Shown here: piece by piece, positions 36,100 through 40,862 of the stretch | Layout of the letters: each line of letters starts with the position of its first letter | Numbering within the stretch: the stretch's first letter is position 1 | From: a virus | Taxonomy: Duplodnaviria; Heunggongvirae; Uroviricota; Caudoviricetes | DNA length: 41,547 bases | Virus record (IMG/VR): IMGVR_UViG_2529292882_000020 | Location: 1-41,547 of that record | Direction: 5' to 3' (one strand) | Notes under the pieces: generated by a model | Told to the model about the DNA's origin: nothing | The model's database searches: none | What the model saw: only the letters and a program-made list of their open reading frames with translations | Made by a program: the position numbers and the translations under genes

Positions 36100-36654
36100 A
36101 TGCTTATTGGCTATGTACGCGTATCAACAAATGACCAGAACACCGATCTACAACGTAATGCGTTGAACTGTGCAGGATGTGAGCTGATTTTTGAAGACAA
36201 GATAAGCGGTACAAAGTCCGACAGACCAGGACTGAAAAAGCTGCTCAGGACATTATCGGCAGGTGACACGCTGGTGGTCTGGAAACTGGACCGACTGGGA
36301 CGCAGTATGCGGCATCTTGTCGTGCTGGTGGAGGAGTTGCGCGAACGAGGCATCAACTTTCGTAGTCTGACGGATTCAATTGATACCAGTACCCCAATGG
36401 GGCGCTTTTTCTTTCATGTGATGGGTGCCCTGGCTGAAATGGAGCGTGAACTGATTGTTGAACGAACAAAAGCTGGACTGGAAGCAGCTCGCGCACAGGG
36501 ACGAATTGGTGGACGTCGCCCCAAACTTACACCAGAACAATGGGAGCAGGCTGGACGATTAATTGCATCAGGCGTTCCTCGCCAGAAGGTGGCGATCATC
36601 TATGATGTTGGTATATCGACACTGTATAAGAAGTTTCCGGTCGGAGATAAATGA
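36100..36654 (+). CDS. pin: serine DNA invertase (Hin/Gin/Pin family)
   Basis: MLIGYVRVSTNDQNTDLQ... catalytic Ser in YVRVST; C-terminal HTH; GAGGGA RBS. Confidence 0.9.
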   Translation: MLIGYVRVSTNDQNTDLQRNALNCAGCELIFEDKISGTKSDRPGLKKLLRTLSAGDTLVVWKLDRLGRSMRHLVVLVEELRERGINFRSLTDSIDTSTPMGRFFFHVMGALAEMERELIVERTKAGLEAARAQGRIGGRRPKLTPEQWEQAGRLIASGVPRQKVAIIYDVGISTLYKKFPVGDK

Positions 36655-36694
36655 AACCGTAGCACGTCGTATGCAAGAAGATCGTGCTGCGGTT
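36653..36694. repeat. cassette-boundary hairpin repeat, copy A
   Basis: GAAACCGTAGCACGTCGTATGCAAGAAGATCGTGCTGCGGTT; starts inside the pin stop codon. Confidence 0.7.
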
Positions 36695-36714
36695 TATGCT
36701 TATCACTTAAAGAC

Positions 36715-37488
36715 TCAAAAATTAGGTGAGTAACGGACCGGGGACATAGCTCCTTTTTTTCTTAATTCATCTGGTATTTTTTTTCCAAGATAAAGATTTG
36801 CTATTTCAGGTGGGGCTTCTCGACCTTCAAAACCATAGCGAGAACTTTGTGTTGCCTCAAAGTCCGGATCCTCGTCCCAGTATTTCATCGTAGGGAAATT
36901 TTCACGTGTTGATTTGAGCCATTTATCAGCAATGAAAACCCCTCGAACGATCCCCCTTACAGTAGCAAGAATGACTTCTGCTTGGCTGGCGCGAGAGACA
37001 TTAATGCGCCAGCTAAATCGAACCGCATCATAAAGCTCTGAATCCTTTGCACTTCTGTTAACGGAAATCATTAATGCTTTATGATGAAATGTTATGGTTT
37101 CGGGTTGATATGTTGCTATCAACTCTTTGACATGCGCGGCGCCGAATTCATTGCTGCCAGCACCATTCATGATATTCGTTAACCCAGGGTAGGCATCAAT
37201 AAGTGCTGCTTCAACTTCGTACGCCGTCTTTTCATCAGTCATTCCGTGTCGATGGATGACATGGATAACCTCAAGTCCTGCTAACCTTATTTCTCTAATT
37301 TGCTTTAGCTTGTTGCTCAGTAACTCGTCATCATCAGTCGCTGCCACTTCACCGCGCATATGGGCAAATACGCGGTTACCTTTGCCTTTCCCTACATAGA
37401 AGGTGCTTCCGTCCCTCGGATCAATCAATCGGTATACATACCAGCCAAGGTGTTCAATTACTCCAGAAGGAAACTCAGTAATATCCAT
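36715..37488 (-). CDS. GIY-YIG nuclease-domain protein with uncharacterised C-terminal domain (257 aa)
   Basis: [30 protein letters not shown] (GIY-YIG with conserved Arg); ATG at 37488; AT-rich. Confidence 0.6.
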
Positions 37489-37674
37489 TTTGCAATATCT
37501 ATGAATTATTTGTGAGACGTATATTAATGAACATTGCAAGGGCTCACAACCAGTAGTGTTGAGAAAAACATCGGAGAAATGAGGCTAAGCCTTTGAATTT
37601 ACATAGTACAAAAAAGATACTTTTCCTCATAATGTGAGCTAATTTTATGTTTCGTTTGATGATTGGACCGGTCT

Positions 37675-37700
37675 CGAAAACCGTAGGCACGTAGTATGCG
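37675..37700. repeat. cassette-boundary repeat, partial copy C (left arm only)
   Basis: CGAAAACCGTAGGCACGTAGTATGCG, about 22/26 match to the left half of copies A and B. Confidence 0.5.
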
Positions 37701-37891
37701 TTAATTTATGAACAAACTACTTGTCTGCTGTTTTTCTGTCATTAGTCGTATATAGAATAATTCTCTATGCCTAACAAAGCATCACCAGTGCTAGATTACG
37801 TTGTAGTCACTGTTTAAATATCCAGATAAAACATTTCCTTCTGGGTTGAATGAGTGATAGAGTTTCACCCATTAGACCCCTTGGAGGAATT

Positions 37892-39325
37892 ATGTCTGAA
37901 TTTGAAGTGTTGGCACAGCATCTGCTGAAGGAAGCCGAGGCGGAAGAAAAGCTGCGACAGGAAAATGATAAAAAGCTTATCGAGAAAGTGCTGGAAATCT
38001 ATGATCAGAAGTATGTGGCTGAATTACTGAGAAAAGTCGGAAAAAATGAGTGGAGCCGTGAAACCATCAACCGCTGGATTAATGGCAAGTGTTTACCAAA
38101 ATCGTTGACTTCAGTAGAAGAGTCTCTTCTGCGTAAGATGCTACCAGAACCACCTGCAAACCATCCGGAATATGCTTTCCGCTTCATTGACTTATTTGCT
38201 GGAATTGGAGGGATACGGAAAGGTTTTGAGGCCATTGGAGGCCAGTGTGTTTTTACCAGTGAATGGAATAAAGATGCTGTGCGTACATACAAGGCCAACT
38301 GGTTTAACGATGAACAGGTGCATAAATTCAATCTCGATATTCGGGAAGTCACGCTGAGTGATAAAACCGATGTATTGGAAACGGATGCTTATGCATATAT
38401 TGATGAGCATGTGCCGGATCATGATGTGCTTCTTGCGGGGTTCCCGTGCCAGCCATTTAGCCTTGCTGGTGTTAGTAAGAAAAACTCACTTGGTCGTGCG
38501 CATGGTTTTGAATGTGAAGCACAAGGAACACTTTTTTTTGACGTGGCACGTATTATACGAGCAAAAAAACCGGCAATTTTTGTGCTGGAAAATGTCAAAA
38601 ATCTGAAGAGCCATGATAAGGGTAAAACTTTCAAAGTCATTATGGAGACCCTTGACGAGCTGGGCTACGAAGTTGCCGATGCTGCAGAAATGGGAAAAAA
38701 CGATCCAAAGATTATCGATGGGAAGCATTTTTTGCCTCAGCATCGTGAACGCATTGTTCTGGTCGGATTTAGACGAGATCTGAATATTCACAAGGGGTTT
38801 ACCTTGCGTGATATCAGTCGTTTTTATCCGGAACACCGCCCATCATTTGGTGAATTGCTGGAGCCTGTAGTCGACAGTAAATATATACTTACGCCAAAAC
38901 TATGGGAGTACCTTTATAACTACGCCAAAAAGCATGCAGCCAAGGGGAATGGTTTTGGCTTTGGGTTGGTCAATCCTGAGAATAAGGAAAGCATTGCACG
39001 CACACTTTCTGCCAGATATCACAAAGACGGATCAGAAATTCTTATTGATCGTGGTTGGGATATGGCAACGGGAGAGGCTGACTTTATGAATGAGAGTAAC
39101 CAGGCTCGTCGACCACGCAGGCTGACTCCCCGAGAGTGCGCACGCCTTATGGGGTTTGAAAAACCTGGAGGGAAACCATTCCGTATTCCGGTTTCAGATA
39201 CTCAGTCATATCGGCAGTTCGGTAACTCCGTTGTGGTGCCAGTATTTGAAGCCGTTGCCAGACTTCTGGAACCCTATATCCTCAAAGCTGTTTCTGCTGA
39301 TGCTGGTAAGACTGGGCAGCCTTGA
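37892..39325 (+). CDS. DNA cytosine-5 methyltransferase, EcoRII/Dcm type (CCWGG predicted)
   Basis: 477 aa from ATG 37892 (GGAGG RBS); [45 protein letters not shown] motifs. Confidence 0.85.
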
Positions 39326-39359
39326 GAACACCTCCCGGCCTTTTAAGCCGGGAGTCAGC

Positions 39360-40574
39360 CTATGATAGTTCAGCGTAAAGTTCTATCAGCTCAGTAATGA
39401 ATGCTCCGAGCGTTATTAATTCTTCTCTAACTGCTTCTGGGTATTTTTTATGTAAAGTTGATGGTACAACGAGTCTGACACCCGCATCTTTCATTTCTCG
39501 GTATTGTGCTGAAGAAACACCTTCTTGCAGCGTAAATAAATGTACCTGATGGATTTTATCTGCTTCATTCAGTATCTGACGCCAGCGATCTTTGCAGGTG
39601 GTCTTTACTGCCAGCATACGTAAGTTTTCTACAGGAAATTCAACGTTATGATATGCCTCTGCTGAAGGAAACAGGAAATCTGGTTTTTTATTACCTTCAG
39701 TAACTGCCTGAGTGGAGAAATGCCGTAGTCCGTGCTCGATAAAAAGCTTCTCTAGGTGAAGTTCAAGTGATTTACCTGCCCTTGATTTACGTCGATTACT
39801 GACAGAGTTGGCTAATGCAATAAACTCATCTACAGAATCGAATCCTTTCTTAATAATATCAAGAACATGTAATTCCTCGACGAGTAGAAAAATATCATAC
39901 TCGACACGCCGACGGTCAATCAGTTGCTCATCTGGATCCTTGGAGTTTTTAGCATAATGGCCAGCAGCATATTGAATAATTTCGTTTCCAGAAGGAAAAC
40001 GCTTCTTCCAGTCTTCAGGAATAACATATTTATGATTTACTGGAGTTTGCTGAAGAGACAATCCGCCCAAAATTTGTCCGGCAGGGCCGGAAATTAGGGT
40101 TCCAGGTATGATTTCGCCAATAGCAGACTCGATGATATCCTCTTCATCGGGATTGACGCAGACCCATATATCTACCTCGGAACAGTCAGTGTTCTGTTCG
40201 TTTAACCTGAAAGCAAGAATTGTGAGGGCTCCTGTATTTTCAGGGTTCTGTAATGGACTTCCTCTCCCCCAGCGCGTAATTCTTTTTTCGTTTCGGGTCT
40301 TACCAAAATAACGGTTGTTGTAATAAATTGCGCGTGCTTGGGTATCAGGGCAATCATGGGATGATACATGCGCAGTAAGGAAGACTGAAGGGTTCAGTTC
40401 GCGAGTATGATTGATAGATGGAAAAAGCTTTTCAACGATATTTGAGGGGATATAAAGTCCGACCTGATGGCCACCTGTTGCGCCTGTGTCGTTTGCAGAA
40501 AGACGTTTGATGTAGATAAAGTAATTCCCGCTTGCGATATCAAGCAGCCAGTTATGAAAAACCGACATATACAT
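39360..40574 (-). CDS. EcoRII-like type IIE restriction endonuclease
   Basis: 404 aa; near-collinear with R.EcoRII as recalled (YIKRLSANDTGATGGHQVGLYIP...MLAVKTTCKDRWRQILNEADKI); convergent with the methylase. Confidence 0.85.
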   Translation of the reverse strand: MYMSVFHNWLLDIASGNYFIYIKRLSANDTGATGGHQVGLYIPSNIVEKLFPSINHTRELNPSVFLTAHVSSHDCPDTQARAIYYNNRYFGKTRNEKRITRWGRGSPLQNPENTGALTILAFRLNEQNTDCSEVDIWVCVNPDEEDIIESAIGEIIPGTLISGPAGQILGGLSLQQTPVNHKYVIPEDWKKRFPSGNEIIQYAAGHYAKNSKDPDEQLIDRRRVEYDIFLLVEELHVLDIIKKGFDSVDEFIALANSVSNRRKSRAGKSLELHLEKLFIEHGLRHFSTQAVTEGNKKPDFLFPSAEAYHNVEFPVENLRMLAVKTTCKDRWRQILNEADKIHQVHLFTLQEGVSSAQYREMKDAGVRLVVPSTLHKKYPEAVREELITLGAFITELIELYAELS

Positions 40575-40641
40575 CCCTTTGTTAACATACAGTCAGGGTT
40601 AACATTTTTCCATAGTTATAGATAAGCGGCTAGGAACTTAA

Positions 40642-40676
40642 GGGAAAAACAAAAAGCCCGCATAAGCGGGCTTTTG
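40642..40676 (-). terminator. strong intrinsic terminator on minus strand (AGCCCGC ttat GCGGGCT + TTTTTGTTTTT), weaker on plus strand
   Basis: perfect 7-bp GC stem; lies upstream of the R gene start. Confidence 0.65.
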
Positions 40677-40822
40677 TGTCACTCGAGAGCCGCGGCTCCT
40701 TTGCGTATCCTTTTTTGTCTCCTCACCGTCTGGTCGGTGTCCTGCTGAGACTGCTAACTTCCTGTTTTTGTTGGTGTTGTCCTTACACCGTCCAATCATG
40801 ATTGGTGGAGCTGGCGGGAGTT

Positions 40823-40862
40823 GAAACCGCAGCCACGTCGTATGCAAGAACGTGCTGCGGTT
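40823..40862. repeat. cassette-boundary hairpin repeat, copy B
   Basis: GAAACCGCAGCCACGTCGTATGCAAGAACGTGCTGCGGTT; about 90% identical to copy A. Confidence 0.7.

Follow-up and report, generated by a model that had tools for sequence, protein, structure and literature searches.

Three hairpin repeats (copies A, B and C) in the 41,547-nt Caudoviricetes record IMGVR_UViG_2529292882_000020, the whole of which is referred to here as the window, are best read as terminator hairpins, acting mainly on leftward transcripts, that double as seams for cassette exchange; we put the probability of this reading at roughly 60%. The primary job of the hairpins would be the formation of RNA 3' ends, as factor-independent terminators or 3'-end hairpins serving chiefly the leftward transcripts of accessory "moron" genes that point back toward the tail-fibre genes, and between convergent genes, as at copy A, a hairpin may act as a two-way insulator. 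An earlier note on this DNA had taken the repeats for a functional site, either a recombination site with the logic of integron attC or a structured RNA or processing signal, and this overall interpretation is partly supported.

The three copies are real. Exact copies of the 17-mer CACGTCGTATGCAAGAA are present at two places in the window, 36663-36679 and 40834-40850, and 0.03 chance matches would be expected with up to three mismatches. Copy A folds as a 13-bp stem (AAACCGTAGCACG/CGTGCTGCGGTTT) around a 16-nt loop at -22.5 kcal/mol, with z-scores of -5.1 on the + strand and -3.5 on the - strand. Copy B closes a 13-nt loop with a stem of approximately 12 bp from which a single C bulges; its folding energies are -21.5 (+ strand) and -20.0 kcal/mol (- strand), with z of about -3.4 to -3.6. 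The T.G wobble claimed for A and the C-G pair plus one-base bulge claimed for B are both present, but the two stems differ by a single substitution to wobble with no double compensatory change, and the compensatory changes that had been read into this pair are found instead across the wider family. Weak by sequence (nhmmer E = 0.08), copy C is confirmed by synteny, with a complete hairpin plus block at exactly its position in the related genome L015. It was said to keep only its left arm; that arm is indeed retained, together with the 5' half of the loop, but the replacing DNA supplies a substitute right arm and a T5 run, and with that arm copy C folds on the + strand (37676-37730; -15.4 kcal/mol, z = -3.6). 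All three copies are direct repeats.

The layout of the locus is given in Table 1, with gene annotation from RefSeq for the identical locus in strain CH4799. Copy A starts inside the pinE stop codon (TGA, 36652-36654), an overlap that had been correctly recognized, and the stop codon of the GIY-YIG gene is about 20 to 21 nt away; the tails of the hairpin are UUUCAUUUAU on the - strand and UUUAUGCUUA on the + strand. The product of accessory gene 3 matched EcoRII (1NA6; E = 3e-243, residues 1-403) in a phmmer search of PDB. Segment 40651-40822 is common to genomes L017, L036, L045 and L091, and the tmRNA match that abuts copy B is weak. Homology to most other genomes stops at about 41007-41017.

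Table 1. Features of the hairpin locus and its surroundings (positions in the window)
Feature	Positions	Strand	Basis or remarks
pix, left Pin crossover site of the invertible tail-fibre segment	34107-34126		20-nt inverted repeat, 95% complementary to 36019-36038
pix, right Pin crossover site	36019-36038		CTTCTCCCAAACCAACGTTT; immediately upstream of pinE
pinE, serine DNA invertase; final + strand gene ahead of the hairpins	36100-36654	+	ORF list; RefSeq annotation
Copy A, solo hairpin without block	36654-36695		Between convergent pinE (+) and GIY-YIG gene (-)
Accessory gene 1, LEM-3-like GIY-YIG domain protein	36715-37488	-	ORF list; RefSeq annotation
Copy C	37655-37699 (hairpin portion 37677-37699)		Flank GATGATTGG..CGGTCTCGA, left arm and 5' loop
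Replacement sequence at copy C	37700-37735	+	Substitute right arm 37716-37730; T5 run 37731-37735
Accessory gene 2, DNA cytosine methyltransferase (EcoRII-type M)	37892-39325	+	ORF list; RefSeq annotation
Accessory gene 3, EcoRII restriction endonuclease	39360-40574	-	phmmer vs PDB
Canonical intrinsic terminator	40652-40675	-	10-bp stem, 4-nt loop, T-run; upstream of ecoRIIR promoter region
Palindrome CCAATCATGATTGG plus 23-nt reverse complement of tmRNA (ssrA) 3' end	40792-40825	-	Abuts copy B
Copy B, hairpin of full conserved element	40823-40862		Same sequence as HK97 copy
Conserved block GGCTGGTGAACTTCCGATAGGGCGAGTATTGAATGATTTACAGCCGTTATTGATTTTAC, 59 nt, accompanying hairpin B	40863-40921		Inside HK633 "attP" annotation and ykgJ/ecpE homology of attB-in-PP_2
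Flank homologous to lambda b region	40922-41010		lambda about 24258-24340

The search for further copies in related genomes found hairpin B together with its block in 5423 of 5426 complete E. coli genomes, at a median of four places per genome, and in 196 phage records, including those of lambda-type phages, HK97, HK633 and Stx phages; the hairpin family is restricted to Escherichia and Shigella. Double compensatory changes were present at 7 of the 12 stem pairs among 73 distinct copies, and the hairpin structure is therefore conserved; paired cells made up 90.7% of this alignment compared with 24-44% in a control with slid partners, a test in which related sequences can beat shuffle controls without structural constraint. 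In the dinI contexts, mean pairwise identity was 96% for the block (a value inflated by the anchors that collected the copies), 90% for the adjacent coding sequence and 64% for the hairpin, the pairing of which was nevertheless kept. The proposal that structure rather than exact sequence is conserved is borne out by these data.

It is very unlikely that the copies have no function of their own and persist as neutral leftovers of mosaic joints, similar because they share a recent ancestor and with pairing kept by template-switch mutation at quasi-palindromes. Such mutation can yield compensatory changes without selection, the family is narrow in range and has spread by recombination, relatedness alone may account for the excess over shuffle controls, and the wobble strand test is ambiguous, with 35 G.T cells and 47 A.C cells that pick neither strand. 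Nevertheless, pairing holds at 64% identity, the hairpins are consistently placed near stop codons (within 0-20 nt to one side, at 6-78 nt to the other), the 5' flank is A rich in 27 unrelated contexts, and RNA 3' ends map to the hairpin tails.

In E. coli K-12, Term-seq (Adams et al. 2021, PMC7815308, supplementary files 1 and 3) listed ends at 1632571/1632574 (+) and 304213/304212 (-), which fall in U-rich tails directly after the hairpins of the Qin and ykgJ-ecpE copies, respectively, both in the minus orientation of the element and on the strand opposite the tail-fibre genes. These positions in the tails of two homologous hairpins indicate that the hairpin forms transcript ends in vivo, and a structured RNA or processing signal is the best fitting of the options raised in the earlier note. 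The three ends listed around the Qin hairpin all map to the + genome strand, again the minus orientation of the element, and an end of the opposite orientation is absent from the K-12 list at the ykgJ-ecpE copy (PMC7815308). The 304213/304212 end has a score of approximately 99,000, a Rho-dependence entry of "No" and an intrinsic terminator score of 2.78, just under the cut-off of 3.0 used in that study (PMC7815308), so that the ends could reflect processing or exonuclease blockage rather than termination. Across the 27 unrelated upstream contexts, the 10 nt preceding the stem contain a mean of 5.3 A compared with 2.5 expected (at least six A in 14 of the 27), so that the minus-strand tail is U rich; in the + strand tail the mean is 3.4 T. 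A consensus terminator scan called neither A nor B, and the minus-strand tail of copy B (UUUCAACUCC) is weak; termination at the three copies of this locus is predicted. Loops in the family, 13 to 16 nt long, are fairly conserved (TCGTATGCAAGAA), and the conservation of so large a loop hints at an extra sequence-specific role.

The abundant "orphan" RNA 3' end of the ykgJ-ecpE copy, and that of Qin, would also be seen if the hairpin plus block were a minus-strand small regulatory RNA gene or a 3'-UTR-derived segment, with the block as its body, the hairpin as its terminator and the repeated hairpins as by-products. Many phages have the start of the block 7 nt downstream of the dinI stop codon, and the block is conserved there at least as well as the adjacent coding sequence, the hairpin varying yet staying paired, and the element lacks a conserved ORF, with 1-nt indels inside the hairpin and the start codon lost in the window. 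We nonetheless regard a small RNA as distinctly improbable: a conserved promoter was not found upstream of the block, its predicted stems show no covariation and tolerate mismatches, and its conservation is inflated as described above. Because A and C are without the block, a small RNA also fails to explain the repeat. No Rfam family exists for the element, and its sole match was to the Shigella small RNA CssrB (RF02799), the 3'-terminal hairpin of whose model is this hairpin; however, the hairpin alone matches, at 24 bits against a gathering score of 76, and the strand of the model is the + strand, opposite to that of the K-12 3' ends. Solo copies of the CssrB type are found in L022, L035, L059, L064 and L092.

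The position of the hairpins beside genes and their use as joints also speak for terminators that double as seams. Members of the family occupy the distal end of the tail-fibre (late) region in lambdoid and e14-like E. coli prophages, and of eight distinct solo hairpins, seven follow a minus-strand ORF, at 6-78 nt from its stop codon (methyltransferase, 6 nt; GIY-YIG, 21 nt; lambda ea47, 78 nt). Empty and occupied sites in other contigs show the cassettes to be joined inside the hairpin, each arm going with the context on its own side. L015 has the order pinE, copy A, GIY-YIG gene, hairpin and block, without the R-M segment, and comparison with it places the left joint of the R-M insertion at 37699/37700, inside the hairpin loop; L095 has pinE followed by a hairpin and block, the left arm being that of A and the right arm of the block-linked type; and in L162 and L154 the right arm of the GIY-YIG cassette is unchanged but its left arm and flank differ. 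In lambda, tfa is followed by a solo hairpin (22572-22608), ea47 and a hairpin plus block (24160-24257). Copy B would then be the hairpin of a full module comprising hairpin and 59-nt block, copy A a terminator travelling with the GIY-YIG cassette, and copy C the remnant of a hairpin that adjoined the block until insertion of the EcoRII R-M segment. As to the enzyme or enzymes behind the joints, we infer that the seams most likely arise when hairpin copies carried by different phage genomes undergo short-homology recombination or template switching. Integrase-mediated recombination may contribute, given that the region is annotated as, and overlaps homology reported for, an att site in some lambdoid phages.

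That annotation invites a stronger proposition, which we consider unlikely, namely that the hairpin plus block is primarily a tyrosine-integrase att site, with the arms as core binding sites, the loop as crossover region and the cassettes between copies as products or remnants of integrase insertion, whether prophage-in-prophage or integron-like capture. Many integrases are said, in an account credited to Williams in 2002, to use tRNA genes through crossover in a symmetric stem-loop with identity to one side, and the cassette joints here are located in the loop. The GenBank record of HK633 places attP from the hairpin loop to the block end (L004, 2518-2598), adjoining its integrase, and in L015 an HK633-type integrase gene (94.5% identical) directly follows the block. 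According to Nakamura et al. 2021 (PMC8112680), lambda-like phages integrate at a 96-bp prophage sequence, "attB-in-PP_2", that is homologous to the ykgJ/ecpE intergenic region over up to 309 bp at 84%; the same 309-bp match, at 83.8%, was recovered here and contains the hairpin and block, and like attB-in-PP_2 and the HK633 attP, our locus is close to the tail-fibre and effector-locus end of lambdoid prophages. However, only B with its block can correspond to these sites, and simple Int-mediated integration would leave a copy of the block at each end, whereas A and C are without it. No integrase lies near the hairpins in the window, the sole candidate by position and ORF being a gene at approximately 1500-2630 next to thrW; the cargo is 1-4 kb of accessory genes with no phage genes and no prophage; phages whose integrases are unrelated (lambda, HK97, Qin and the dusA-type L036) retain the element; and its att assignments derive from sequence comparison.

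The recombination-site reading in the earlier note is partly right, in that cassettes are joined inside the hairpin and the region overlaps att annotation and homology, but membership in integron attC is not supported. The hairpins resemble attC in their imperfect inverted repeats, bulged base and conservation of structure above sequence, and in the serial arrangement of one copy per cassette; they lack RYYYAAC/GTTRRRY core sites, however, an IntI-type integrase was not identified, and lambda has the same arrangement without such an integrase. The cassette genes, which lie on either strand, occupy their own hairpin-bounded units; the element measures about 40 nt and its loop is conserved; and single-strand recombination is unsupported. 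The suggestion that Pin, or another serine recombinase, inverts or excises the cassette at the hairpins is effectively refuted. Copy A touches the pinE stop codon, and the base of the hairpin has the short AAACC...GGTTT motif found also in the pix, gix and hix sites of Pin, Gin and Hin, but Pin's own sites are the 20-nt inverted repeats around the tail-fibre segment. Invertases of this family require inverted sites and an enhancer, and true pix sites are dyads of 20-26 bp, whereas the hairpins are direct repeats with 30 nt separating AAACC and GGTTT and are without the TTCTCCCAAACC half-site. The hairpins of lambda, HK97, HK633 and Qin have no adjacent invertase or one that is oppositely oriented, and the pinE of K-12 e14 has no hairpin.

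A close likeness is to the Rho-independent, often bidirectional, terminators of morons, which Juhala et al. in 2000 and Hendrix et al. are said to have described as promoter-gene-terminator units. Shared features are the GC-rich stem, flanked 5' by A-rich sequence and followed on the accessory-gene strand by a U-rich tail, placement just beyond the stop codons of convergent genes, RNA 3' ends mapped at homologues, and a hairpin downstream of every accessory unit, to which the R-M unit adds its canonical terminator upstream of the endonuclease gene. Unlike typical intrinsic terminators, the hairpins have larger and fairly conserved loops, the U-tract of A and B is short or broken, and a single sequence family serves many unrelated cassettes and coincides with recombination joints. 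The sib/tI retroregulator of lambda is likewise a hairpin past attP on the far side from int that is read by leftward transcripts, and 1 nt separates the end of the HK97 element from the annotated sib site, but our element differs in sequence, is further from att (3.5 kb off in lambda, beyond ea59 and ea31) and, unlike sib/tI, has a stem too short for an RNase III site.

In summary, the hairpins are a generic feature of the ends of lambdoid and e14-like prophages and are not special to this locus, and the three repeats represent an ordinary phage terminator and module-junction element rather than a new recombination system.

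Copies A and B share an exact 17-mer, for which the chance expectation is 0.03 (at ≤3 mismatches), and both fold into stems of 12 to 13 bp around loops of 13 to 16 nt, with folding energies well below those of shuffled controls (z scores of -3.4 to -5.1; -22.5 kcal/mol on the plus strand and -16.3 on the minus strand for A, -21.5 and -20.0 for B); the hairpin repeats are therefore real. A, C, and B all lie in direct orientation, and A starts inside the stop codon of pinE, the overlap with the invertase gene that had been reported from the sequence. Copy C, which by itself is a weak match (nhmmer E = 0.08), was said to keep only the left arm; the arm is indeed kept, but so is half of the loop, and we regard C as a true truncated copy because a contig with a related arrangement, L015, carries at the same place a complete hairpin followed by the block, the 59-nt conserved sequence that adjoins B. 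The compensatory changes noted between A and B comprise a wobble pair and a bulged C, which we confirm, but they amount to one transition and not to a double compensatory change.

Features of the locus and of the three hairpin copies
Feature	Position	Strand	Remarks
proA and tRNA-Thr(CGU) thrW	1369-1444 (thrW)		at window start
Integrase gene	~1500-2630	-	adjoins thrW; assigned from position and ORF
Prophage with Mu-like baseplate and tail-fibre genes			after thrW
Invertible tail-fibre segment	34107-36038		bounded by 20-nt inverted repeats 34107-34126 / 36019-36038
pinE	36100-36654		after invertible segment
Hairpin A	36654-36695
LEM-3-like GIY-YIG gene	36715-37488	-
Hairpin C (partial)	37677-37699
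Cytosine methyltransferase	37892-39325	+
EcoRII endonuclease	39360-40574	-	PDB 1NA6 match, E = 3e-243
Segment left of B	40651-40822		canonical minus-strand terminator, palindrome, and 23-nt ssrA 3'-end fragment
Palindrome CCAATCATGATTGG then TGGTGGAGCTGGCGGGAGTTGAA	40792-40825		abuts hairpin B
Hairpin B	40823-40862
Block	40863-40921

Conservation of structure rather than of exact sequence, as the earlier note had supposed, is borne out by 73 distinct copies collected from IMG/VR with an anchor within the block, a procedure that leaves the hairpin itself free of selection. Changes that preserve pairing on both sides are found in 7 of the 12 stem pairs, and 90.7% of cells are paired, compared with 24 to 44% when the partners are slid by one to three columns; among dinI-flanked copies, the mean identity is 64% for the hairpin, 90% for the adjacent dinI, and an anchor-inflated 96% for the block. 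Thus, the structure has been kept while its sequence drifted. Homology sets in exactly where the stem starts, and the sequence upstream differs among copies, being drawn from pin stop codons, the ends of several unrelated tail-fibre or tfa genes, and tRNA- or tmRNA-like fragments. Covariation was absent from the predicted stems of the block. Wobble counts were ambiguous as to the transcribed strand of the hairpin (35 G.T and 47 A.C cells), and those of the block were anchor biased and became mixed after re-collection with a second anchor. Solo hairpins, those without a block, were sought with an nhmmer profile built from the longer alignment; a hairpin-only MAFFT alignment mis-registered the bulge.

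Protein coding across the element (hairpin plus block) was considered and rejected: open reading frames of 57 and 106 amino acids cross it in the window, and one of 69 amino acids is annotated as a "hypothetical protein" in HK629, but the hairpin contains 1-nt indels, and conservation does not extend to start codons, the window having ATA in place of the ATG. The element also lies inside a predicted "hypothetical protein" in "Lambda imm21", and this protein is unlikely to be real in either phage. Promoter matches in the block were weak and not conserved. The sequence at 40864 to 40871, GCTGGTGA, has seven of the eight bases of Chi; its T and G positions vary among copies, and the resemblance is for this reason probably coincidental. 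A literature search with the sequence string of the element returned no match.

Further copies in related genomes abound. A 201-nt query around B matched 5,423 of 5,426 complete E. coli genomes, at a median of four places in each and ~22,700 in all, the part common to these matches being the hairpin and the next 59 to 100 nt, and it matched 196 phage records, including lambda-type phages, HK97, HK633, phiP27, and many Stx phages. Strain EC11 has no cargo here, the element coming straight after the stop codon of pinE; in HK97 its neighbours are tfa and the annotated sib site, in HK633, where it is annotated as attP, they are stf and int, and in relatives of lambda they are ea47 and ea31. K-12 carries the element between ykgJ and ecpE and where Qin ends, and Rac has the hairpin without the block; no hairpin follows pinE in K-12 e14, so the hairpin is not an obligate companion of pin. 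Among 185,579 species representatives, an exact 24-nt pattern from the block was restricted to Escherichia and Shigella, apart from three contigs that are likely contaminants. These are a contig of a Caldithrix metagenome-assembled genome and contigs of 262 and 401 nt from Chryseobacterium and Lysobacter assemblies (L134, L142, and L143); one of them matches the K-12 ykgJ-ecpE region at 100% identity, and all three occurrences almost certainly represent E. coli contamination.

Several lines of evidence point to RNA 3'-end formation, mainly of leftward transcripts, as the function of the hairpin. As an intrinsic terminator would, A and B have a GC-rich, stable stem, backed by the covariation; their loops exceed the 3 to 8 nt expected, and a long, fairly conserved loop is atypical of a plain terminator. 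A scan for consensus terminators reported neither copy. The minus-strand tails are UUUCAUUUAU for A (6 of 10 U) and UUUCAACUCC for B (4 of 10 U), with U5 tails at the Qin and Rac copies; over 27 unrelated contexts, the 10 nt before the stem have a mean of 5.3 A (2.5 expected), with at least six A in 14 of them, so that the minus-strand tail tends to be U-rich. On the plus strand the tail is the block, which is not U-rich, and the tail is poor except at A. Solo hairpins lie just past the stops of minus-strand accessory genes, at 21 nt from that of the GIY-YIG gene in four contexts, 6 nt from that of a methyltransferase beside an ipaH-like gene, and 78 nt from that of lambda ea47, and in many phages the block lies 7 nt beyond the end of a DinI-like gene.

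The K-12 Term-seq data of Adams et al. (2021, PMC7815308) include 3' ends at 1632571/1632574 (+) and 304213/304212 (-), which fall in the tails directly behind the hairpins of Qin (GCGGUUUUUC) and ykgJ-ecpE (CCGCUGUUCU), respectively, both in the element's minus orientation, and their presence in these tails indicates that the hairpin makes transcript ends in vivo. No RNA is annotated at either position; the ends at both sites were published as "orphan" ends, the abundant one lying 31 nt upstream of ykgJ (PMC7815308). The ykgJ-ecpE end has a score of ~99,000, is recorded there as Rho-independent, and has an intrinsic terminator score of 2.78, just under the cut-off of 3.0 used in that paper. 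The tables of Adams et al. contain no 3' end of opposite orientation at the ykgJ-ecpE copy, and near the Qin copy every listed end has the minus orientation. The structured RNA or processing signal envisaged in the earlier note is thus the option that fits best, Rho-independent 3' ends being mapped at two K-12 homologues, and the window's own copies would probably act alike. The hairpin may form 3' ends either by termination or by blocking exonucleases.

The closest functional match among known systems is the phage moron terminator, the hairpin also serving as a conserved module boundary. Several other candidates were rejected. Only the terminal hairpin of the 180-nt Rfam model CssrB (RF02799) aligns, at 24.5 and 24.2 bits, far under the gathering threshold of 76. 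ARAGORN found thrW as the only tRNA or tmRNA gene, and the tmRNA model scored 9.5 bits (E = 0.97); of tmRNA, just a 23-nt 3'-end fragment is present, at 40803 to 40825. For an AgvB-like anti-small RNA at 40740 to 40790, where the minus strand is CA-rich, there was no Rfam match, and AgvB and AsxR are located elsewhere, at the pR' moron site.

The hairpins had also been proposed as recombination sites, with attC-like logic or as targets of Pin. At the foot of the stem, sites of attC type carry an inverse core and a core site with the consensus RYYYAAC ... GTTRRRY. The hairpin bases (ATGAAAC/TTGAAAC ... GTTGGCT/GTTTATG) do not match this consensus; unlike integron cassettes, which are promoterless and share one orientation next to an IntI gene and attI, the cargo genes here are found on either strand, each unit having hairpins or terminators of its own at its boundaries. 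No IntI was identified in the window, whose sole integrase gene adjoins thrW, and lambda has the same layout without IntI. The attC comparison accordingly fails. Pin can be excluded as the recombinase because its own sites are the repeats that bound the invertible segment (AAACCTTGGTTTGGGAGAAG / CTTCTCCCAAACCAACGTTT), within which alternative tail-fibre and tfa open reading frames lie on both strands, and because the hairpins, in contrast to the ~26-bp dyads of pix/gix with their two inverted copies, are direct repeats lacking the half-site; the element, moreover, also occurs where no invertase is present.

What survives of the recombination-site proposal is that joints between cassettes lie inside the hairpin. 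Contig L015 has the order pinE-A-GIY-YIG-hairpin-block and lacks the R-M genes; measured against it, the window carries an additional EcoRII segment whose left joint, 37699/37700, falls within the loop, after GTATGC. In contig L095 (pinE-hairpin-block), the left arm of A is fused to the block-linked right arm CGTGCTACGA, and in L162 and L154, the GIY-YIG cassette has an unchanged right arm (CGTGCTGCGG-TTTA...) with a different left arm and a tRNA-like flank. Each arm thus goes with the context on its own side, which places the joints between the two arms. With other cargo, Shigella-type contigs and lambda (NC_001416) repeat the layout of late gene, hairpin, minus-strand accessory gene, and hairpin with block; in lambda, an unannotated solo hairpin (22572-22608) comes right after tfa (orf-194) and an equally unannotated hairpin with block (24160-24257) lies between ea47 and ea31. 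From these comparisons, the hairpin appears to be the seam at which cassettes are joined, which would explain the presence of several copies. We infer that the joints arose when hairpin copies on phage genomes resident in one cell underwent short-homology recombination or template switching with each other, a route that would suffice without a special enzyme. A very small insert of ~240 nt between two hairpin copies is seen in four records (L030, L182, L206, and L208) with the order ykgJ-like 5' part, hairpin, ~240 nt, hairpin, block, and dinI.

A contribution of a phage integrase to these joints is possible. The attP annotation of HK633 extends from the hairpin loop to the end of the block, an HK633-type integrase gene comes right after the block in L015, and a 309-bp match of 83.8% to the ykgJ/ecpE region was recovered that contains both hairpin and block. 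The passage of Nakamura et al. on attB-in-PP_2 (PMC8112680) describes a 96-bp att sequence homologous to this K-12 region, the homology reaching up to 309 bp at 84%, with which the recovered match agrees. B with its block aligns with HK633, HK97, and a K-12 copy, and it alone of the window's copies has identity with the ykgJ/ecpE intergenic region; by alignment, it appears to overlap the described att region but has no adjacent cognate integrase in the window, where none was found to the right of the block, nor do the copies flank a whole prophage. A purely integrase-based origin is also at odds with the lack of a block at A and C, the lack of an integrase near these sites in the window, and the nature of the DNA between copies, which consists of 1 to 4 kb of accessory genes. 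The hairpins were likewise rejected as the att core of this phage; a search for a copy of the thrW 3' end at the right end of the prophage found none. In K-12, positions 303676 to 304375 (yagU-ecpE; 2177 to 2876 of L130) comprise a tfa fragment, ykgJ, the hairpin, the block, and a dinI 3' fragment, and ykgJ-like genes flanked in the same way are present in prophage contigs at ~84% identity. These features suggest that the yagU-ecpE region, with ykgJ-ecpE, is a prophage relic and that the chromosomal "attB" homology noted in that passage of Nakamura et al. (PMC8112680) is phage derived, and not the reverse.

Strain CH4799 of E. coli has the locus at 99.9% identity, and 77 complete genomes contain 80% or more of this end region. 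The whole pinE-GIY-YIG-EcoRII-block module also occurs in a different, lambda-like prophage with another integrase (L127, strain 2017.15.02CC); the R-M joint is found in ~245 genomes and the GIY-YIG promoter-hairpin junction without R-M in many more, and related Dcm genes are located on plasmids. Homology to most other genomes stops at ~41007 to 41017, beyond which an unrelated 156-amino-acid open reading frame (41077-41547) is found only in strain CH4799. The segment left of B is a separate shared module that also stands behind a DUF4145 gene in other prophages. Its TGGTGGAGCTGGCGGGAGTTGAA, which we take to be the 3'-terminal 23 nt of E. coli tmRNA (ssrA) in reverse complement, has degenerate versions (TGGTGGGGGACGGAGTTGA and TGGCGGGGGCGGGCGGAGTTGA) at the corresponding place in other prophages, and the flank of C (GATGATTGG..CGGTCTCGA) resembles the palindrome with its ssrA fragment; the sequence may be what is left of an ssrA-type att site.

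A more ambitious reading, improbable as a whole in our estimation, would make the ~100-nt hairpin plus block both a portable platform of Escherichia prophages for the capture of cassettes and phages and an orphan-RNA gene. The loop could then be where a phage integrase or recombinase preferentially makes its crossovers, accessory and defence cassettes, even whole phages, could have been inserted serially in integron-like fashion, the module could encode the abundant K-12 orphan RNA, and the chromosomal ykgJ-ecpE "attB" could be a relic of the platform rather than its origin.

As terminator-type hairpins of a known functional kind, in a module that is unannotated or inconsistently annotated, the sites are of modest interest, and the chief value of the finding lies in annotation and interpretation. 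A non-coding module of ~100 nt, present in almost all E. coli genomes and in lambda, goes without a label or is variously called attP (HK633), part of a "hypothetical protein" (lambda relatives), or the 3' end of an Rfam small RNA model, and its hairpin accounts for two "orphan" K-12 Term-seq 3' ends. Once recognized, the module provides a landmark for where the tail-fibre module stops and marks a hotspot for defence and virulence cargo in lambdoid and e14-like prophages, occupied here by a GIY-YIG nuclease and EcoRII R-M and elsewhere by ea47, methyltransferases, DUF4145 proteins, and dinI and ipaH neighbours. If the joints within the loop are enzyme-directed, the module would also bear on the accumulation of cargo by prophages.
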